This document shows, piece by piece, positions 10,344 through 21,478 of a DNA stretch of 32,000 nucleotides. The stretch covers positions 98,116-130,115 of the forward strand of contig NZ_BSDI01000004.1 in assembly GCF_027923225.1 (NCBI RefSeq), given 5' to 3'. The translations under genes were made by a program, and so were the position numbers. This DNA is from Phytohabitans aurantiacus. GTDB taxonomy: Bacteria > Actinomycetota > Actinomycetes > Mycobacteriales > Micromonosporaceae. Position 1 is the stretch's first letter. The number at the start of each line of letters is the position of its first letter. The notes under the pieces were generated by a model that saw only the letters and a list, made by a program, of their open reading frames with translations, had not been told where the DNA came from and searched no databases.

Positions 10344-13300
10344 TCAGTGCAGCAGGTACGCGCGGAGCGTGGTCAGCGTGACCTCGTTACCGGCCTTGTC
10401 CTTCGCCACGGCTCGCAGCGACACGTGCTCGGCGCCGGCCGGATGGTTGACCGTCGTCTTCCACTTCGAGCCACCGCCTTTCACCGCCGCCGGGCTCCAC
10501 GTAGCACCGTCGTCGTAGGACACTTCGACGGTGAGGCTGGTGACACGGCTGGCATGGGAGCCGGCCTGGTGGCTGACTCGCACCGGAATGGTGAATCGTT
10601 CGCCCGCCGGTGCGCTGTACGCACCGTCCAGCGCTGGCGCGTAGTGCACCGTCATCAGGGGAAGAGGCGTCACCGCCTCCGCGGAGTGTGCGGAACGGAA
10701 CGACCATGAGCCGGACACCTTGGTGGATGTCGGGAAGACCCCGGTGCGGTCGAGTTCCGCCTCCAAACGGTACGCGGAATCCTCGCTGGGCAGCGTCGTC
10801 GAGAGAATGCCAGCTACGGGGGAGGTCGCGATGGGTTCCCCATTCCGATACAGGGTGGTCTGGCTCCGCTTCGCCGGGATCTTGCCGCCGATCCCGAACC
10901 GGCCGGGCACGGGGTCGACCATCATGCCGAAGTACGCGCTGAATTCGTCGTCGGCTGTCCGGGTCACGCCGACCGTCGACGCGCTACCGGCTGGGCGGTT
11001 GTAGAACGCCGGGCCGAAGACCGCCGTGTTCCAAATCTGTTGGTACGAACGCCCTGGCCGGTAGACGAGGTCCGATTGGGCGGCGAGGGTCACCGTCTTC
11101 GGAACGTCGATCGGGCCGATGTCGACCATGTCGCTGGACCAGTTCACGTTCGTGCCGGCGAAGTAGTCGATGCGGCGCGCGGGCAGCCGCATGCGGATGT
11201 TTGCGGAGAAGAACGCGTTGTCGGCCAGTGAGCCCATCGCACCGGCGGTGCCGGGCAGCCCGTGCATGTTCTGGTGTACGACGGCCAGGTCGCGGGGACG
11301 GACGTGGCGGGTGAGCCCGGTCGGGACTCCGCCGTCGATGCCGATTCCCACGTTGTACATGTACGGGCTGTCCCAGAAGGAACCGTTGCCGTCCGAACGG
11401 GCCCAGTGGGAAGCGACCAGAGACTTGAAGCCCGCCGAGGTGGCCGCGGGGCCGACCTGTCCGAGGAACAGCCTTTGGGTGCCCTCGTAGGGGAAGTAGT
11501 AATCGAGTCCGTCATCGCCGGGCGCCGTGTAGCTGGCGAGCGACAAGACCGGAGCGGCGCCGGGTTCGGGCACGGTGATGTCGACGGCGGCGGCGGTCCG
11601 GGCGTCGATAACGACCGTGGTGTCGGCCTTCAACCGGATCTGTGGCCGCGCCAGCAGCGAGATGGTTTCCTTCTCGGTGTCCGGGTCGGTCGCGATGAGG
11701 GCACCCACGCTGTAGTCGCCCGCGGGCACGCGCGTGGTGTATCCGTCCGGCGTCATCTGGTACGACACCTGTTCGCCGGTCCACGACGTGACGGCGCTGT
11801 TGTACGCCGTCGCGGTCGCGCCGTGCCGGTCGATCACCCGCACGGTGATGTCGTAGCTTTCCGCCTCGCGGAACACGGAGACCTGCGTCCGCACCGGGGT
11901 GGCACCCACCATCGCGGTGACCTGGCCCGTGTACCGGCCGTCCGGGGCGGCCACCGACGTGTCCACCGTGACGGTGACCGTGGCCGTGCCTCCCGCGGGG
12001 ATCGTCACGGTCGACGGCGACACCGTCAGCATCCCGGCCGGAGCGGCACCGCCGGGGCCGGTCATCGCTCCAGCCACGGTGGCCGAAATCGGTGTGGTAC
12101 CGGTGTTGCGGTAGGTCAGCACCTTGGCCATCGGTGCGTCGTCCTCGTGCGGCCACTCCGGCCGCCCCAGGTTGAGGCTGCCCTGATCCACGACCACGGA
12201 CGCGCTGACCAGAGCGGCCAGGTCTACCCGACCCGCGCCCTGCCCGTCGAGGGCGACCCCATCGAGCCACCGGGAGGTGCTCATCAAAGCGCCCTTGAGT
12301 TCCGAGCCGCTCCACTGTGGATATTTCTGGGCCAGAAGTGCCGCGGCGCCGGCGACGTGCGGTGTCGCCATCGACGTGCCGCTGCGCGCCATGTAGGGCC
12401 CGCTGCCCTCATCAGGCACCAGCGAGGAGCGGGCGGCCACGATGTCGGTACCGGGAGCCGCGATCTCGGGCTTGAGCCCGCCGTCACCCAGCCGGGGACC
12501 ACCGCTGGAGAAGTCCGCGATGGCGTCCTGACGATCGACCGCCGCGACCGAGAGTGCGGCGTCCGCTGTGGACGGTGACTGGACCGTGTGGGGACCGTCG
12601 TTGCCTGACGCGATCACGAAGAGCGTGCCGTACTGCGCGCTGAGCCGGTTGACCGTGTCTTCGACGATGTCGACGCCAGGACTGTCCGGCCCGCCGATGC
12701 TCACGTTTACCACCGAGGCGCCCTGCTCGGCCGCCCACTGCATGCCGGCGATCATCGCCGAGTCGGAGCACCACCTGTCGTCACACACCTTGCCGGCGAG
12801 GATCGTGGCTTCCGGCGCGATGCCCTTGTACCGCCCGCCGGAGGCAGCGCCGTTGCCCGCCATGGTGGACGCCACATGCGTGCCGTGCCCGATCACGTCG
12901 CCTGGCTCCGGCGACTCGGAGAAGTTCTCGCTGGCTCGAATACGACCGGCGAGATCGGGATGGCTCGCGTCGACGCCGGTGTCCAGTACCCCCACCACGA
13001 CGTCACGGCCGGTGAGGCCGGCTTCCCAGGCCGCTGGCGCGCCGATCTGTGCCGCGCTCTGGTCGAGCGCGATCTGCCTGACGCCATCCAGAAGGATCGA
13101 GCGGACGGCGCCCTGGTCGAGCCCGGAACGCAGCTCGGTCCACAGTGCACCGTTGTCGCCCTTGTCGGCGCGCACCGCGAGCGCGTTCACCACGGGGATC
13201 TCGCGAGTCACCGTGGCGCGCTTGTCCGCTAATTGGCGCAGGCTGGAGCGCTTCGCGCCTCCGGCGTGCTGGAGGATGAGCGGCGTCGTGTCGCGGTACC

Positions 13301-13610
13301 CGATCGCGAGCAGCCCGGTCACGTCGAACAGTCGCCGATCCACCCGACCCGCGGCCAGCAGTCCGAGCACATCGGATGGATAGATGTACTGGTGCCCGGC
13401 GCGCCGCTCGGCAGCGAACCCGATCCGGTCTCGCCCCTTGCCGGGCTCGACCGACACCACCTTGTCGCCGCTGAAACGCACGACGTCGCCGGTGACGAGG
13501 GTGACCGTGTCACCCGGTAGGGCGCCGCCCGGTTGTGCTGTGGCGGGCGCGGGACCAGAAAGGACCAGCGTCAGACTCGCCGACGCGGCGAGCCATCGAA
13601 ATGTTCTCAC
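10344..13610 (-). CDS. secreted S8 (subtilisin-like) serine peptidase with a very long C-terminal extension
   Basis: 1088 aa. It has a signal peptide (RTFRWLAASASLTLVLSGPAPATA-QP) and the catalytic triad motifs VGVLDTGVD (Asp), HGTHVASTMAG (His) and SGTSMATPHVAGAAALL (Ser). About 600 aa of beta-rich repeats lie C-terminal to the catalytic domain. The start is GTG at 13610 with no obvious RBS. Confidence 0.9.
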   Translation of the reverse strand: MRTFRWLAASASLTLVLSGPAPATAQPGGALPGDTVTLVTGDVVRFSGDKVVSVEPGKGRDRIGFAAERRAGHQYIYPSDVLGLLAAGRVDRRLFDVTGLLAIGYRDTTPLILQHAGGAKRSSLRQLADKRATVTREIPVVNALAVRADKGDNGALWTELRSGLDQGAVRSILLDGVRQIALDQSAAQIGAPAAWEAGLTGRDVVVGVLDTGVDASHPDLAGRIRASENFSESPEPGDVIGHGTHVASTMAGNGAASGGRYKGIAPEATILAGKVCDDRWCSDSAMIAGMQWAAEQGASVVNVSIGGPDSPGVDIVEDTVNRLSAQYGTLFVIASGNDGPHTVQSPSTADAALSVAAVDRQDAIADFSSGGPRLGDGGLKPEIAAPGTDIVAARSSLVPDEGSGPYMARSGTSMATPHVAGAAALLAQKYPQWSGSELKGALMSTSRWLDGVALDGQGAGRVDLAALVSASVVVDQGSLNLGRPEWPHEDDAPMAKVLTYRNTGTTPISATVAGAMTGPGGAAPAGMLTVSPSTVTIPAGGTATVTVTVDTSVAAPDGRYTGQVTAMVGATPVRTQVSVFREAESYDITVRVIDRHGATATAYNSAVTSWTGEQVSYQMTPDGYTTRVPAGDYSVGALIATDPDTEKETISLLARPQIRLKADTTVVIDARTAAAVDITVPEPGAAPVLSLASYTAPGDDGLDYYFPYEGTQRLFLGQVGPAATSAGFKSLVASHWARSDGNGSFWDSPYMYNVGIGIDGGVPTGLTRHVRPRDLAVVHQNMHGLPGTAGAMGSLADNAFFSANIRMRLPARRIDYFAGTNVNWSSDMVDIGPIDVPKTVTLAAQSDLVYRPGRSYQQIWNTAVFGPAFYNRPAGSASTVGVTRTADDEFSAYFGMMVDPVPGRFGIGGKIPAKRSQTTLYRNGEPIATSPVAGILSTTLPSEDSAYRLEAELDRTGVFPTSTKVSGSWSFRSAHSAEAVTPLPLMTVHYAPALDGAYSAPAGERFTIPVRVSHQAGSHASRVTSLTVEVSYDDGATWSPAAVKGGGSKWKTTVNHPAGAEHVSLRAVAKDKAGNEVTLTTLRAYLLH

Positions 13611-13636
13611 ACAGCCTAGGTGTCAACGAGCCCACC

Positions 13637-15287: not shown

Positions 15288-16775
15288 ATGGAAACTCGCA
15301 ACCCGCACCGCTGGTGGATCCTCGTCGTGCTATGCCTGAGCAGCCTGGTCCTGGTGGTCGACAGCATGGCGCTGACCGTCGCGGTGCCACACATGACCGA
15401 GGACATCGGCGCGAGCGCGCAGGACATCCAGTGGATCCTCGACTCGTACATCCTCGTGTTCGCCGGACTTCTGCTCACCTCGGGAAGCCTCGGTGACCGG
15501 TTCGGACGCCGAAAAGTCATGATCATCGGCCTGCTGCTCTTCGGAGCGGCGTCACTGGCGGCGATGTTCGTCGCGAACCCCGCCGAGATGATCGCGGTGC
15601 GGATCGCGATGGGCGTCGGTGGCGCCCTGATCATGCCGTCAACACTGTCGATCCTCATCACGGTCTTCCAGGAGGACGAGCGCAACAAGGCGATGGCGGT
15701 GTGGAGCTCCGTGGCGATGCTCGGCCTGGTCGGCAGCCCGGTGCTGGGCGGGGTACTGATCGACCACTTCTCCTGGCAGGCGATCTTCCTGATCAACGTC
15801 CCCGTCGTCGGTCTCGCGCTCCTGGCCGGCCTCACCCTGATGCCCGAGTCGAAGGCTCCCTGGCAGAAGGCCGACCCGCTGGGCGCGGTGCTCTCCGCCG
15901 CCGGCATGACCGCCCTGGTCTGGTGGATCATCGAGATCCCACAGCACGGCGCCTTCGAGGGTCGCTCGCTGGTCACCCTCGGCATCGCCGTGGTCTCGCT
16001 CGTCGGATTCGTGATCTGGGAGAACATCACTCCCGCCCCGATGGTGCCGCTGGTCCTGTTCAAGCACCGCAACTTCAGCGGCGGCTCGCTCTCCCTCGCC
16101 CTCGTGCAGATCGGCAACGGCGGCCTGCTGCTGGTGCTCACCCAGTACCTGCAGTTCGTGCTCGGGTACTCGCCGGTCAAGGCAGGCCTGGCCTTCGTGC
16201 CGCTGGCCGTCGCGGCGCTCGTCGGCAACGGGTTAGGCGCCAAGTTCGCCGCGAAGCTCGGCAACCGCGCCCTGGTACTGGGCGGCATGCTCGTCATGGT
16301 CGCCTCGTTCGCCCTGCTGACCACCGTCTCGGCCGACACCAGCTTCGCGGTCCCCGCCATCGCCCTCGGCCTCCTCGGCTTCGGTGCCGGCGCCGCGATG
16401 CCGGCCGCGGTCAGCGCCCTGATGGCCACCATCCCGGCTGACAAGGCGGGCGTCGGCTCCGCCCTGAACGACACCATCCAGCAGGCCGGCACCGCGCTGG
16501 GCATCGCGATCCTCGGCTCGCTGCTCTCCAGCGGCTTCGCCAGCGAAATGCCCGCCGACGCACCGGAGCAGGCCAAGCGGTCGATCGCCGACGCGCTGGC
16601 GATGGCTCAGGGCGACGCCGGCCTCATCCAGACCGCCCGGGACGCCTTCACCGCCTCGATGTCCACCACGTTCACCCTCAGCGCGATCGGCGTCCTCGCC
16701 GCCGCGATCGTGGCCAGCCTGATCATGCGGGACCGCAAGCCGGCACCCGCCGAGGAGCTTGAGCTCGTCGCTTGA
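15288..16775 (+). CDS. MFS transporter, DHA2 (EmrB/QacA-like, 14-TMS) drug:H+ antiporter family
   Basis: The start is placed at the ATG at 15288 (METRNPHRWWILVVLCLSS...) with GGAGGAAG 4 nt upstream. The MFS motif A-like GSLGDRFGRRKV is present, along with multiple hydrophobic helices and a length of 495 aa. Confidence 0.85.
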   Translation: METRNPHRWWILVVLCLSSLVLVVDSMALTVAVPHMTEDIGASAQDIQWILDSYILVFAGLLLTSGSLGDRFGRRKVMIIGLLLFGAASLAAMFVANPAEMIAVRIAMGVGGALIMPSTLSILITVFQEDERNKAMAVWSSVAMLGLVGSPVLGGVLIDHFSWQAIFLINVPVVGLALLAGLTLMPESKAPWQKADPLGAVLSAAGMTALVWWIIEIPQHGAFEGRSLVTLGIAVVSLVGFVIWENITPAPMVPLVLFKHRNFSGGSLSLALVQIGNGGLLLVLTQYLQFVLGYSPVKAGLAFVPLAVAALVGNGLGAKFAAKLGNRALVLGGMLVMVASFALLTTVSADTSFAVPAIALGLLGFGAGAAMPAAVSALMATIPADKAGVGSALNDTIQQAGTALGIAILGSLLSSGFASEMPADAPEQAKRSIADALAMAQGDAGLIQTARDAFTASMSTTFTLSAIGVLAAAIVASLIMRDRKPAPAEELELVA

Positions 16776-16778
16776 CCG

Positions 16779-18518
16779 TCACGCGGAAGGCCGGTGCTCC
16801 CCGTGGAGTACCGGCCTTTCGCGCTGGCGGCGGGCGACCTCATCCGGGGTACCTTCCGCCGCCACGACGCCGTCGCGTAGCAGTACCACCCGGTCGGCAG
16901 ACCGCACCGTGGCCGGCCGGTGGCTGATGACAAGGAGCGCGCACACCCGCGACACCTCGCGGATGGTGCGGGTGAGTGCCACCTCGTTGACCGGGTCCAG
17001 ATGCGCCGTTGGCTCGTCGAGCAGCACGAGCGCCGGCCGGCCCAGCAGGCACCGCGCGATGGCCAGCCGCTGGCGTTCACCACCCGACAGCAGCCGCCCG
17101 TGCTCCCCGACCTCGGCATCCAAGCCGCGTGGGAGCCGCCTGACCAGATCGGTCAGGTTGGTCATCGCCAGTGCCCACCACAGGTCGTCATCGTCGGCCG
17201 CGGCACCGGAGTAGGTGAGGTTTTCGCGCACGGTACCGGCCAGGACCGTGCACTGCTGCTCGACAAGGCCGATGGCGCCGCGGTACTCGTCGTACGGAAC
17301 GTCGCGGGCGTCCCTGCCACGAAACAACACCTGCCCGCGATCCGGCTCGTAGAACCGCTCGATGACACTGAACACAGTGGACTTACCGGCTCCTGACGGC
17401 CCGATCAGCGACACGTGTCCACGCTCGGGCAGGCTCAGCGACAGTCCACGTAGGAGCGGTCGCGCGGGCTCGTAGCCGAACCACACGTCCCGCAGCTCCA
17501 GCAGATGCGGCGATCGGTTCTCCGGCACCGCCGCGGCCGCGCGGACGGTTACGGGTTCGCGCGGCAGTGCGAGCACCTCGTTGACCCGCTGCAGCGCGCC
17601 GGCACCCTGCTGCACGGCGGTGACCGCTTGAAAGATCGCCCCCACGGGCGTCGTCAGGTAGGTGAGGTACAGCATGAAGGCGACAAGTTCGCCGACCGTG
17701 CTGGCGCCACCGGCCACCCGCGCGCCACCTATCAGCAGGATGATCAGGTAGGACCCGGTGAGCGCCAGGTCGTTGACCGATCCGGCGCCGGCGTCCAGCC
17801 GCGCCATCCGCAGGCGGGCCGCACAGATCCGGCTCGCGTGCCTGAAGATCCGGCCGCTCTCCGCCGGCTCCGCACGGTTGGCGCGTACCGAACGGATGGC
17901 GGACAAGGCGCGCTCCAGGTCGGCCGTCAGTTCGCCATCCGCTCGCTGTGCGTCGGCGGACGCGAGCCGGATCCGCTCGACGACGGCCAGCAACACCGGC
18001 ACCGCCACGCCGATCAGCACGGCGACCACGACAAAGAGCGTCCAGTCCAGCCACAGCATCACCGCTACGAGGCCGGCCAGCCCGATGGTGCCCGACGCCG
18101 CGTTGGTGACGCTCTCCGCGATGAGCATGCGGATCGCGGCGGGATCGGTGGTGATTCGTGAGATCAGGTCACCACCGCGGTACCGGTCGTAGACAGCGAT
18201 CCGCAGCCGCAACACGTGATCGATCAGCGTCTGTCGCAGCTTGAGGGTCATGGCTTCGCTGGCCCGCGCCTGCGCGTACCGGGCCACCCCGAGCGCGACC
18301 GCCTGAAGGAGAAAAAGCACCACGAGCGCACCGACGGGACGGAAGGGAAAAGCGCCATCGGCGGTCGCGTCGACCGTGTGCCGTACCAGCAGCGGCTGCG
18401 CCAGCCCGGCGCCGGTCGCCGCGACGCCGAGCGCGACCGCCAGCGCGAGCCACCGGTAGTGGCCACTCAGCAGGCGCATCATGTCGCGCCAGCCGGCCCG
18501 GTCCAGCGCGCTGGTCAC
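16779..18518 (-). CDS. ABC transporter, fused permease/ATPase (lasso peptide exporter / immunity, D-type)
   Basis: The TMD has about 6 helices. The NBD carries Walker A GPSGAGKST, signature LSGGERQRLAIAR and Walker B LVLLDEPTAHLD. The start is uncertain: GTG at 18518 (2 nt after the B2 stop) or ATG at 18482. The track ORF start at 18671 overlaps the B2 gene and is unlikely. Confidence 0.85.
   Translation of the reverse strand: MTSALDRAGWRDMMRLLSGHYRWLALAVALGVAATGAGLAQPLLVRHTVDATADGAFPFRPVGALVVLFLLQAVALGVARYAQARASEAMTLKLRQTLIDHVLRLRIAVYDRYRGGDLISRITTDPAAIRMLIAESVTNAASGTIGLAGLVAVMLWLDWTLFVVVAVLIGVAVPVLLAVVERIRLASADAQRADGELTADLERALSAIRSVRANRAEPAESGRIFRHASRICAARLRMARLDAGAGSVNDLALTGSYLIILLIGGARVAGGASTVGELVAFMLYLTYLTTPVGAIFQAVTAVQQGAGALQRVNEVLALPREPVTVRAAAAVPENRSPHLLELRDVWFGYEPARPLLRGLSLSLPERGHVSLIGPSGAGKSTVFSVIERFYEPDRGQVLFRGRDARDVPYDEYRGAIGLVEQQCTVLAGTVRENLTYSGAAADDDDLWWALAMTNLTDLVRRLPRGLDAEVGEHGRLLSGGERQRLAIARCLLGRPALVLLDEPTAHLDPVNEVALTRTIREVSRVCALLVISHRPATVRSADRVVLLRDGVVAAEGTPDEVARRQRERPVLHGEHRPSA
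16787..16818 (+). terminator. strong hairpin just past the MFS stop, embedded in the 3' coding end of the convergent ABC gene
   Basis: AAGGCCGGTGCTCC-CCGT-GGAGTACCGGCCTT (14 pairs including one G-U) followed by TC GCG. The MFS stop codon (16773-16775) and the ABC stop codon (16779-16781) are only 3 bp apart. Confidence 0.35.
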
Positions 18519-18520
18519 CG

Positions 18521-18937
18521 CTAGGCCACCGTGAAGAAGGTGCGAAAGTAGTCGGCCGGAAACTCCTCCCCGACCGGCTCCCCGTCGACCTCCACCCAGG
18601 CGTGCGCCGAGAAGGGCGGCAGCCGCCTCGTGCCGACGCACCACGCCGCCCACGTCCCCCGTGCCCGGCACAGCAGCACCACCGCGAGCGATCGGGGCAG
18701 GCAGCCCTCGCGTGCGGCGCAGACGAGGCTCACCGCCATCACCGCCTGCCGGGCGTCGAGCACCTGCTCGCGGGTGGCGGGGCGGGCGCCCCGACGCAAG
18801 CGGGTCAGAAGCCGCCGGATCTGTCGGGGTGGACGCCGTGCCAGTACCCGAGCCGCCGTCACCGCCGCGTGCGCCGCAAGCCGCGTGGGCAGCGGAACCG
18901 ACCGGGGGTTGTGATAGATCGCTTCGGGCATGGACAT
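18521..18937 (-). CDS. lasso peptide biosynthesis B2 protein (transglutaminase-like leader peptidase)
   Basis: This is the last 138 codons of track ORF 18521-20314, starting at ATG 18937 (MSMPEAIYHNPRSVPL...). Cys-His-Asp catalytic context typical of lasso B proteases is present: REGCLPRSLAVVLLCRARG ... FSAHAWVEVDGEPV. Confidence 0.85.
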   Translation of the reverse strand: MSMPEAIYHNPRSVPLPTRLAAHAAVTAARVLARRPPRQIRRLLTRLRRGARPATREQVLDARQAVMAVSLVCAAREGCLPRSLAVVLLCRARGTWAAWCVGTRRLPPFSAHAWVEVDGEPVGEEFPADYFRTFFTVA

Positions 18938-18945
18938 GGCGGCGC

Positions 18946-19203
18946 CTACCGGTCCATCAGGCCGGCGGTGCACAGCTCCGTGACCAGATGGGTCACGTCC
19001 TGCTCCGCGCTGCCTCGATCGATGTCGTACTCCCGGCTGAGCGCCGTCGCGGCCGCGGCCGCGTCGCCGCCCTCCGCGATCGTGCGGACGACGACCGCAC
19101 CCGTCTCGTTGAGGGTAAAGAAGGCGCCGCTGTCCTCGTCCAGCAGAGCCGCACCGTACTCCGTCTCGGTGATCAGTACGCCGTTGCGCAGCTTCAACCC
19201 CAT
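18946..19203 (-). CDS. lasso peptide biosynthesis B1 protein (PqqD-like RiPP recognition element)
   Basis: 85 aa. It has a PqqD-like pattern (GAALLDEDSGAFFTLNETGAVVVRTIAEG...DVTHLVTELCTAGLM). RBS GAGGAGGAG overlaps the stop of the upstream cyclase gene. Confidence 0.85.
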   Translation of the reverse strand: MGLKLRNGVLITETEYGAALLDEDSGAFFTLNETGAVVVRTIAEGGDAAAAATALSREYDIDRGSAEQDVTHLVTELCTAGLMDR

Positions 19204-19212
19204 GACTCCTCC

Positions 19213-21066
19213 TCAGGACGCGAGAGCCGTCCGGTCGGTGACGCGTTCGATCGAGCGCAGCCAGACCTCGGCCGCGATCGTCTGGTGCAGCACCCCGATC
19301 TGCAGGTGCTTCGGCAAAGGGCGCGCGCACAGCTCGCGTACCGCCCGCGCGTCGATGAGGCCGAGCCGGGCCAGGGCCGAGTCGTCCCACAGAGCGAAGA
19401 GCGCGTCGCGGTGCACCCGCAACCCCATCTCCTCCTCGACCATCGCGTTGGCCTTCGTGGCGCGCAGCCGGCTGCTCTCCGGTACCACGCCGAGCATCGC
19501 CTCGCTGATCAGCGGCTTGTACCGCCACGGCGTCACCCGCTGCTCGGGCCGCACCGACAGCGCCGCCGTCACGACGGCGTCGTCGTAGTACGGCGCCGCG
19601 TACCGCACTCCGCGCTCGGCGGCGAGCTGCTGAAGCTGGCGGGTCATCCGGGACAGCAACCCGATGGCGGCGAGTTCGCGGTGCTGGCCGCGATGTGGGC
19701 TGAGCGGTGCCGCCCCGCCGATCTCGGCCCGGAGCAGCGTGCGCACGGCGTCGACGGCGTCGCGGGTGGTCCATGGCGGAAGTCGTGGCTCGCTGCCCCA
19801 GTCGAGCATGGGTTCGGTGATTGGCGGCGGCGCCATCGTCAGGTGCGCGTCGACACCGCGCAACCAGTCGCCGTACGAGTTCGTGGACGCGAGTTGCCGC
19901 AGCACCTGGCCGGCCGGCCACCGATATTTGGCGACGAACCCGCGAATCATCCGGCGCGCGAGAAGCGGTCGCCGGCGCGCGAGCGTGTGCAGGTACGCGG
20001 TGGAGCCGTGCAGAAGCTCGTCGCCGCCGATACCCGTGAGGTGCGCGCTCGATCCCCGGTCGGCGGCGCGCGTGACCACCGCGAGCCAGCGGTTCCGGTC
20101 GACGGTGGTGAAGCAGGGCTCGTCCCACAGGTCGGCCATCTCGTCGACACCGGCGTAGCTGAGCGGCATCTCCTCGCCGGGCACGACATGGTGCTCGATG
20201 CCGAGAGCGGCAACCGTACGGGTGGCCCATTCGACGTCGTCGGCCATGGCGTCGCGCACGTCGACGGTGAAGGCGAGCACCTCGGCGTCGGCGAGCCGCG
20301 CCGCGATCGCACACACCGCTGTGGAGTCGACGCCGCCAAGGTCACACGAGACGAGCCGCTGGCCGCGGGTGCGAACGCCGACCGCCTCGGTGAGGGCGGT
20401 GGCCAACTCCCGCGCACCGTCGGCGAGTGGCACGGTCGGGTCCGGCGGAGACCACCACCGCGCCGAGCGGACCACGCGGTCCTCGCGGATCTCGACATCG
20501 TGTCCGCCCGGAATCTCGGTCACGCCGCGCCACAACGGCTGGCCGGTGACCGGCGGCATGGTCTGCGGGTCCAGCAGGTGCGCCGCCACCCGTGCCGGAT
20601 CGAGATCGGCACCGGTCAGCGCGGCGACCACGTCGGCGCGGTCTGCGATGAGGGTCACCGGTCCCGCCGAACCGACGAAGACCCGGCGCAGTGCGCTCAC
20701 CGTGCCCCGGACGTACAGCTTCCCCCCGACCGAGCCGACCAGGTGATAGCTGCCTGGCCATCGCGGGCGGCCCGTGCCGCGCAGGTGATCGAGCCCGCCG
20801 TCCAGAGCCAGGCGGGCGGCGACCCGCTCGACATCTTCGCTGCGAGTGATGTGCTCACCAATGACAGCGAGGGCGGCCGTGCCGGCGGTGGCGACGGCAA
20901 TATCCCGGTCGGCCCATCGGCCAAGTATCCATGAACGCCCGGATGGGTGGCGGACACAACGAGTGGCGTACGGCTTGATTGATCTGGCGACGGGGTCCGC
21001 GTCCGCTTTATCGGGCAGGACAATGAACCAACTGGCAAGCAGGGAGAGATTCGCAATTGGCGGCAT
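19213..21066 (-). CDS. lasso peptide isopeptide bond-forming cyclase (asparagine synthetase B homologue, C protein)
   Basis: 617 aa. The N-terminus WFIVLPD is typical of lasso cyclases and there is no Cys2 glutaminase nucleophile. A PP-loop-like ATP pyrophosphatase motif SCDLGGVDSTAV is present. RBS GAGGAG lies upstream of ATG 21066. Confidence 0.9.
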   Translation of the reverse strand: MPPIANLSLLASWFIVLPDKADADPVARSIKPYATRCVRHPSGRSWILGRWADRDIAVATAGTAALAVIGEHITRSEDVERVAARLALDGGLDHLRGTGRPRWPGSYHLVGSVGGKLYVRGTVSALRRVFVGSAGPVTLIADRADVVAALTGADLDPARVAAHLLDPQTMPPVTGQPLWRGVTEIPGGHDVEIREDRVVRSARWWSPPDPTVPLADGARELATALTEAVGVRTRGQRLVSCDLGGVDSTAVCAIAARLADAEVLAFTVDVRDAMADDVEWATRTVAALGIEHHVVPGEEMPLSYAGVDEMADLWDEPCFTTVDRNRWLAVVTRAADRGSSAHLTGIGGDELLHGSTAYLHTLARRRPLLARRMIRGFVAKYRWPAGQVLRQLASTNSYGDWLRGVDAHLTMAPPPITEPMLDWGSEPRLPPWTTRDAVDAVRTLLRAEIGGAAPLSPHRGQHRELAAIGLLSRMTRQLQQLAAERGVRYAAPYYDDAVVTAALSVRPEQRVTPWRYKPLISEAMLGVVPESSRLRATKANAMVEEEMGLRVHRDALFALWDDSALARLGLIDARAVRELCARPLPKHLQIGVLHQTIAAEVWLRSIERVTDRTALAS

Positions 21067-21101
21067 TGACTCTCCTCAGTATCGAGCGGGCGAATGGGGA
21101 A

Positions 21102-21129
21102 CCGGGCGGGCAGCGACCTGCCCGCCCGG
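21102..21129 (-). promoter_or_regulatory. perfect 12-bp stem / 4-nt loop hairpin between the lasso precursor and cyclase genes (attenuator / transcript-stabilising element)
   Basis: CCGGGCGGGCAG-CGAC-CTGCCCGCCCGG. It starts 13 nt after the precursor stop codon and ends 36 nt before the cyclase ATG. No U-tract follows it on the minus strand. Confidence 0.55.
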
Positions 21130-21141
21130 CTCACCGGCGCA

Positions 21142-21252
21142 TCAGAGCAGCTGCTTGCCGCCCAGCAGGTCCTTCGGACCCCTGTTGCCGATCCCGGTCT
21201 CGGTGCGGAAGTCACCCTGCTTCGTGAGTGTGGGACGCTCGTACTTGCGCAT
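21142..21252 (-). CDS. lasso peptide precursor (A peptide), 36 aa
   Basis: ATG at 21252 is preceded by GGGAGGAG 8 nt upstream. The translation, verified codon by codon, is MRKYERPTLTKQGDFRTETGIGNRGPKDLLGGKQLL. The leader fits YxxPxLx3Gx5Tx exactly. The gene lies immediately upstream of C-B1-B2-D. The track ORF (89 aa, starting at 21411) includes a non-coding-looking N-terminal extension. Confidence 0.8.
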   Translation of the reverse strand: MRKYERPTLTKQGDFRTETGIGNRGPKDLLGGKQLL

Positions 21253-21478
21253 TTTGTGCTCCTCCCAGCAGTGGTTGATGAGACGGAAACGAATGCGCCG
21301 GGGATCAACCATCCGGCACCGAATCCCCTGCGGCACCAATGGATGTGCGCGTTTAAAATCCGTCCCCTGGAGACGGTAGGTGGGATACCCACGAACAACA
21401 ACCGCCATCAACCAGATTCACGGTTGTGGGTGAATTCGCCAACACCACTTGCGACATCGCTCAATCTATTGTTTTCGA

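Follow-up and report, generated by a model that had tools for sequence, protein, structure and literature searches.

The 32,000-nucleotide stretch of DNA from the soil actinomycete Phytohabitans aurantiacus analyzed here (the window) carries, at positions 16779-21252, five open reading frames (ORFs) that run in the same direction on the minus strand in the order A-C-B1-B2-D. Judged from sequence and with a probability of roughly 0.87, this region is an intact and ordinary five-gene lasso peptide cluster of the lagmysin family. Its genes, in the order in which they are read, are as follows.

21142-21252, minus strand: A, the precursor gene (36 aa).
19213-21066, minus strand: C, the lasso cyclase, a homologue of Asn synthetase B (617 aa).
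18946-19203, minus strand: B1, a PqqD-like RiPP recognition element (RRE; RiPP, a peptide synthesized ribosomally and modified post-translationally; 85 aa).
18521-18937, minus strand: B2, a transglutaminase-like cysteine protease (138 aa).
16779-18518, minus strand: D, a half-size fused ATP-binding cassette (ABC) exporter (579 aa, GTG start).

The intergenic gaps along this unit are 75, 9, 8, and 2 nt. The initial annotation of the window had described five minus-strand ORFs with these coordinates and gaps, and all of them are present, in agreement with both RefSeq and an independent gene call. In the Logan contig L001 (SRR33230281, 99% identical), a separate gene caller returned proteins of 36, 617, 85, 138, and 579 aa with the same neighbours, and the RefSeq proteins of Phytohabitans aurantiacus correspond to A, B1, B2, and D of the window from end to end, in length as well as in sequence. 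Both RefSeq WP_281892765.1 and the gene call on L001 speak for the GTG start of D. An exact match to the cyclase was absent from the contig index, for which a start-codon or strain difference is the probable reason, and the 99% identical relative P0008 was used in its place. The GenBank models differ from those of RefSeq in that the precursor is a 56-aa hypothetical protein (GLH95722.1, window 21142-21309) and B2 has 136 aa (GLH95719.1). The RefSeq models, with a 36-aa precursor and a 138-aa B2, were favoured because of the position of the ribosome-binding site (RBS) and the family alignment.

The precursor consists of the leader MRKYERPTLTKQGDFRTETG followed by the predicted core IGNRGPKDLLGGKQLL, and its gene is divided as follows.

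21259-21266, minus strand: Shine-Dalgarno sequence GGGAGGAG, 6 nt 5' of the precursor ATG, read from the sequence.
21193-21252, minus strand: leader.
21145-21192, minus strand: predicted core.
21142-21144, minus strand: precursor stop codon.

The precursor matches Pfam PF19397/DUF5972 over residues 1-28 (6.9e-11, 42 bits, cutoff 22.6) and NCBIfam NF033521 lasso_leader_L3 (21.4 bits against a cutoff of 19), and is identical to RefSeq WP_281892770.1, which is named 'keywimysin-related RiPP'. Its leader reads M-R-K-Y4-E-R-P7-T-L9-T-K-Q-G13-D-F-R-T-E-T19-G20, with the pattern YxxPxLx3Gx5T-G. The YxxPxL leader motif and a Thr at position -2 are described for actinobacterial lasso precursors (PMC6784204; PMC10368454). 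Consistent with this, the window leader has both the YxxPxL motif and the penultimate Thr expected of split-B actinobacterial lasso precursors. D8 is the sole acidic residue in the core and falls within positions 7 to 9, where an Asp or Glu is expected; therefore, the macrolactam ring is predicted to join Ile1 to Asp8. The predicted product is very probably a class II lasso peptide, devoid of disulfides, with an 8-residue ring and an 8-residue loop plus tail. For the dehydrated 16-aa core, the monoisotopic mass is 1659.978 Da, which gives an [M+2H]2+ of 830.997 (830.9965) and an [M+3H]3+ of 554.333 (554.3334). These recomputed values agree with an earlier calculation by hand (about 1660.0 Da, [M+2H]2+ near 831.0), which implies that the same core had been meant.

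The family assignment draws on lagmysin, a class II lasso peptide with the core LAGQGSPDLLGGHSLL that is listed as unmodified (PMC12427821). In Streptomyces lavendofoliae (locus L073), the leader MAYERPTLTKVGDFQKVTG, which ends in KVTG, is followed directly by the exact lagmysin core, and therefore the leader/core boundary of the family can be placed by homology between T-G and the aliphatic residue that comes next. Leu1 and Asp8 would close the lagmysin ring, since lagmysin has no acidic residue other than Asp8. The window core aligns with lagmysin without gaps and is identical to it at 8 of 16 positions; both have 16 residues, start with an aliphatic residue right after T-G, contain Asp8 as the sole acidic residue, and share the tail D-L-L-G-G-x-x-L-L. 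The two differ in the ring, which is basic in the window core (R4, K7) with Pro6 and has Q4, S6, and P7 in lagmysin, and at tail positions 13-14, which are K13-Q14 and H13-S14, respectively. Their hosts also differ, Micromonosporaceae for the window and Streptomyces for lagmysin. The two loci have the same leader motif, the same A-C-B1-B2-D order, and no tailoring genes, and all five genes are collinear, with identities of 64% for the precursor (tblastn, gapless), 47% for C, 43% for B1, 58% for B2, and 39% for D. Precursor homology over the leader and ring, together with orthologous enzymes in the same order, places the window cluster in the lagmysin family. Lagmysin is said to have been first reported by Tietz et al. 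2017, Nat Chem Biol 13:470, and keywimysin, another lasso peptide, was reportedly described in the same study. By its RefSeq name, the window precursor belongs to one family with keywimysin.

The leader/core boundary also bears on an alternative in which the core starts one residue earlier, giving the 17-mer GIGNRGPKDLLGGKQLL with a 9-residue Gly1-Asp9 ring (1716.9999 Da, [M+2H]2+ 859.507). Lasso peptides begin most often with Gly, Gly1 is the usual first residue in most entries of a lasso peptide table (PMC12427821), and 9-membered rings are permitted. However, a Gly start would put Thr at position -1, whereas its conserved position is -2, and lagmysin begins at Leu straight after the same invariant T-G. 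Moreover, T-G is followed by an aliphatic residue in all of the 50 distinct homologous 16-mer precursors compared here. We consider the earlier start highly improbable and keep Ile1 as the first residue of the core.

The maturation enzymes and the exporter were each assigned to a family by profile searches. Each of the five proteins matches the Pfam or NCBIfam family expected from the component identities given in the initial annotation, including the matches to PF00733, PF13471, and PF05402 that it had proposed as checks. The motifs that it had pointed out are all found in the translations (WFIVLPD, SCDLGGVDST, GCLPRSLA...AHAWVEVDG, and the Walker A motif GPSGAGKST, the signature LSGGERQRL, and the Walker B motif LVLLDEPT). 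C matches PF00733 Asn_synthase (3.5e-38), and a Pfam scan at E <= 0.01 detected no glutaminase (GATase) domain in it. Its PP-loop, D242-L-G-G-x-D247-S248-T249, is retained by at least 97% of the homologues aligned (81 in all). C thus has the features expected of a lasso cyclase, namely likeness to Asn synthetase B, a PP-loop, and no glutaminase domain, and it is 47-48% identical to cyclases from loci with lagmysin-type cores. B2 matches PF13471 (6.1e-27) and NF033537 lasso_biosyn_B2 (116.8 bits, cutoff 33), as expected of a transglutaminase-like Cys protease; the catalytic Cys and His (C79 and H112) as well as the acidic residues E116 and E124 are kept in at least 97% of the 81 homologues, and the third, acidic catalytic residue could be E124 or D118.

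B1 provides the PqqD-like RRE of a split-B lasso cluster. It matches PF05402 PqqD (7e-15) and NF033530 lasso_PqqD_Strm, a lasso PqqD family chaperone (98.3 bits, cutoff 70), and among leader-binding proteins in the PDB it matches TfuB1 (6JX3, 1.5e-13) and TbiB1 (5V1U, 0.0019). TfuB1/FusE belongs to the fusilassin/fuscanodin system of Thermobifida fusca, which is biochemically the best-studied split-B actinobacterial system. That system and the window have in common the split B1/B2, the YxxPxL leader, and a B1 related to the 6JX3 protein; the fusilassin core WYTAEWGLELIFVFPRFI, with its Trp1-Glu9 ring, is unrelated to the window core (PMC12427821). D matches PF00664 ABC_membrane (6.7e-33) and PF00005 ABC_tran (1.2e-29), representing a transmembrane domain plus a nucleotide-binding domain, and resembles BmrA, MsbA, and ABCB1-type exporters in the PDB. 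D would export the mature peptide, and probably also contributes to self-protection.

Relatives of the cluster were sought by a cyclase-profile scan of 185,579 species-representative genomes, which returned 201 relatives, and the best 80 were kept for the comparisons. The 36-aa precursor was padded with 5 upstream residues for the homology search. The order C-B1-B2 is collinear in 80 of 80 loci, and a D homologue comes after B2 in nearly all. Upstream precursors were recovered in 76 cases, with 58 distinct cores. T(-2), G(-1), and D8 do not vary among the 16-mer precursors (50 distinct sequences), all of which have L, I, V, or A as the first core residue. The cores IGNKGPRDLLGGKQLL (Streptomyces sp. 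TRM 70361), VGNKGPKDLLGGKQLL (Spirillospora), and LGSRGPKDLLGGKQLL are identical to that of the window at 14 of 16 positions, and IKNTGPKDVLGGKQLL, a very common Streptomyces core, at 13 of 16. The metagenome proteins P0004 and P0006 contain exactly the same core as the window behind different leaders. The uncharacterised 'GPKD(L/V/I)LGGKQLL' precursors from Streptomyces, Spirillospora, Catenuloplanes, and soil metagenomes share 13-14 of 16 core residues and the five-gene architecture with the window, whereas their flanking genes are unlike those of the window.

Between the window and loci L033, L054, and L075, which represent other genera, precursor identity is 72-79%, compared with 49-52% for C, 52-54% for B1, 60-66% for B2, and 39-53% for D. 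The conservation among Phytohabitans, Spirillospora, and Streptomyces is strongest in the core tail D-x-L-G-G-K-Q-L-L. A precursor conserved above its own enzymes points to strong constraint on the predicted mature peptide. RiPP cores are normally the variable part of such precursors, and the core conservation seen here is unusual. The five-gene modules occupy unrelated chromosomal contexts across genera, and the chromosomal location of the window cluster is not common to other genera. It is conceivable, though we regard it as unlikely, that the GPKDxLGGKQLL peptides have a conserved target that actinomycetes hold in common, and serve, for example, in signalling or development instead of as antibiotics in an arms race; if this were true, they would form a widespread, unstudied family of physiological lasso peptides.

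Two sister sub-families were also observed among the relatives (L019, L023, L024, L030-L032, L047, L055, L065, and L068; and L048, L057, L060, and L064). Their leaders are one residue shorter (x4-T-G), their cores have 17-18 aa, and Glu9 replaces Asp8. One of them has cores of the form LGTNRGPERVxPLRFSL, and in the other the core (LGFRAGPERFWFFRRRFF) is strikingly rich in aromatic and basic residues. In Streptomyces lomondensis (L016 9819-9915), the precursor has a truncated 12-aa core, LAPTEGPNGSSV, with C, B1, B2, and D otherwise intact; this precursor may have decayed or diverged from the rest.

The extent of the unit was examined by grouping the flanking ORFs within ~4 kb of the 80 clusters into families. 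No recurrent flanking gene family occurs in more than 8 of the 80 loci, and the neighbours of the window cluster were not found beside homologous clusters, apart from the near-identical L001. Therefore, the conserved unit is A-C-B1-B2-D alone. The earlier statement that the cluster has neither a tailoring enzyme nor a regulator situated within it holds on the strength of the same flank comparison.

Several points weigh against reading the unit as an intact, producing lasso cluster. C falls below the NCBIfam cyclase cutoffs (NF033561, 244 bits against 300; NF033535, 60 against 525), and therefore its assignment rests on its domain, its context, and its orthology to cyclases of proven clusters. 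A PDB relative detectable by sequence was found neither for C nor for B2. No sigma-70-like promoter was found upstream of A with a sigma-70 scan, which is poorly suited to actinomycetes. On the strand that the operon shares with frdD, it follows that gene at a distance of 226 nt, and transcription may read through from frd. In addition, a tailoring enzyme may be encoded elsewhere in the genome, and both production and the threaded topology are predictions made from the DNA.

The low cyclase scores, together with the plentiful small ORFs in 70% G+C DNA, would be in keeping with a decaying or non-lasso remnant, in which the Asn-synthase homologue has another role and the small ORF arose by chance. 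However, this small ORF matches two independent precursor models and has a strong RBS, all ORFs are full length with intact catalytic residues, and across genera the precursor (72-79% identity) exceeds the enzymes (39-66%) in conservation. The conservation data effectively refute the remnant already, and we find it scarcely credible. A different alternative is an intact but cryptic cluster, or one whose product is modified by an enzyme encoded elsewhere, for example by conversion of Arg4 to citrulline (+0.984 Da). For citrulassin, the deiminase is reportedly encoded outside the cluster. The unit has no regulator or recognisable promoter, its core has an Arg, and many of the lasso clusters of actinomycetes stay silent under laboratory conditions (PMC6856326). 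On the other hand, the window encodes no tailoring enzyme, and the listing of lagmysin as an unmodified class II peptide (PMC12427821) argues in the same direction. We judge a cryptic cluster or modified product to be very unlikely, and an intact lagmysin-family cluster remains the preferred reading.

The arrangement of the spacers gives some indication of how this operon may be expressed. The initial annotation had held that the RBSs overlap the upstream stop codons. This is the case at the C/B1 junction (TGAGGAGGAGTCATG), where a clear B1 RBS (GAGGAGGAG) overlaps the C stop codon, and RBSs also precede A and C (GAGGAG in the case of C). However, the B1/B2 and B2/D junctions have weak purine-rich runs and no clear RBS, and the claim does not extend to them. 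The gap between A and C contains one structured element.

21099-21132, minus strand: perfect 15-bp G+C-rich hairpin with a 4-nt loop and no U tract, in the 75-nt A-C gap.

The RNA of 21067-21145(-) folds at -43.9 kcal/mol (z = -3.56), and only 1 of 200 shuffles folds equally well. By analogy with other RiPP operons, this hairpin is probably an element for processing, stability, or attenuation that protects the precursor transcript or ends part of the transcription behind it, which would leave A in excess. The frdD-A intergenic region as a whole shows no unusual structure (z = 0.02). Within this spacer, on the minus strand at 21352-21376, there is a small hairpin, CCGUCUC-CAG-GGGACGG, followed by AUUUUAAA (T4), which is a weak candidate for a terminator of the frd operon.

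Upstream, the cluster is flanked by frdABCD on the same strand as the operon, and downstream by a convergent MFS gene, from which a TetR gene diverges. The setting between the frd operon and an MFS/TetR module, as described earlier, was thus borne out. Most simply, the TetR gene belongs with the MFS gene. The stops of the MFS gene (TGA 16773-16775) and of D (16779-16781) are convergent and 3 nt apart, and an inverted repeat, AAGGCCGGT-N14-ACCGGCCTT, lies within the 3' end of D (window 16773-16820); it could serve as a terminator for the MFS transcript. An S8 subtilase gene, probably unrelated, is separated from the cluster by ~3 kb that hold the genes for the MFS protein, TetR, and a siderophore-interacting protein (SIP). 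The subtilase (1092 aa, 10344-13622, minus strand), SIP, TetR, and MFS genes were considered as cluster members and rejected, since they are not conserved beside homologous clusters. Horizontal insertion was likewise considered and rejected, as there is no compositional signal (G+C of 0.70-0.72 in the cluster against 0.66-0.71 nearby).

A protein of ~680 aa with a PAP2/vanadium-haloperoxidase-like motif (...SGHSTFS...GGIHF...) flanks the cluster in 8 of the 80 loci, for example at L006 7563-9605. Nine such ORFs occur in these 8 loci, of which 7 are on the downstream side and 2 on the upstream side, and they are absent from the window. It is possible that this protein is encoded by an accessory or tailoring gene in its 8-locus subset.

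On the basis of homology and the general biochemistry of split-B lasso systems, a pathway can be proposed for the window cluster. The 36-aa precursor would be translated, and B1, as the RRE, would bind its YxxPxL leader and present the precursor to B2. B2 would then cut after T19-G20. With ATP, C would adenylate the Asp8 side chain and join Asp8 to the Ile1 amine while the tail is threaded, and the ABC half-transporter D would export the 16-residue lasso IGNRGPKDLLGGKQLL. The A-C hairpin probably keeps the precursor mRNA above the enzyme mRNA.

Neither the window core and its close variants, those of the 'GPKD(L/V/I)LGGKQLL' type included, nor a report of any lasso peptide from Phytohabitans was found in the searchable literature. 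The initial annotation had left it undecided whether this exact product had been described. Its core does not appear in the searchable papers; however, it differs little from a known family, and automatic annotation in RefSeq already covers it, since A is labelled there 'keywimysin-related RiPP', B2 'lasso B2 protein', and B1 'lasso PqqD chaperone'. The peptide is undescribed, yet its family is known and widespread, with at least one isolated member (lagmysin).

The practical value of the finding is modest, since automatic annotation already recognises the genes and the knowledge of lasso biosynthesis is unchanged. Our analysis gives a precise, testable prediction, namely that a genus of rare actinomycetes encodes an undescribed basic lasso peptide, a 16-mer whose ring joins Ile1 to Asp8 and whose m/z is 830.997 (2+). 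It also places this predicted peptide in a large, mostly uncharacterised lagmysin-like sub-family with an unusually conserved core.

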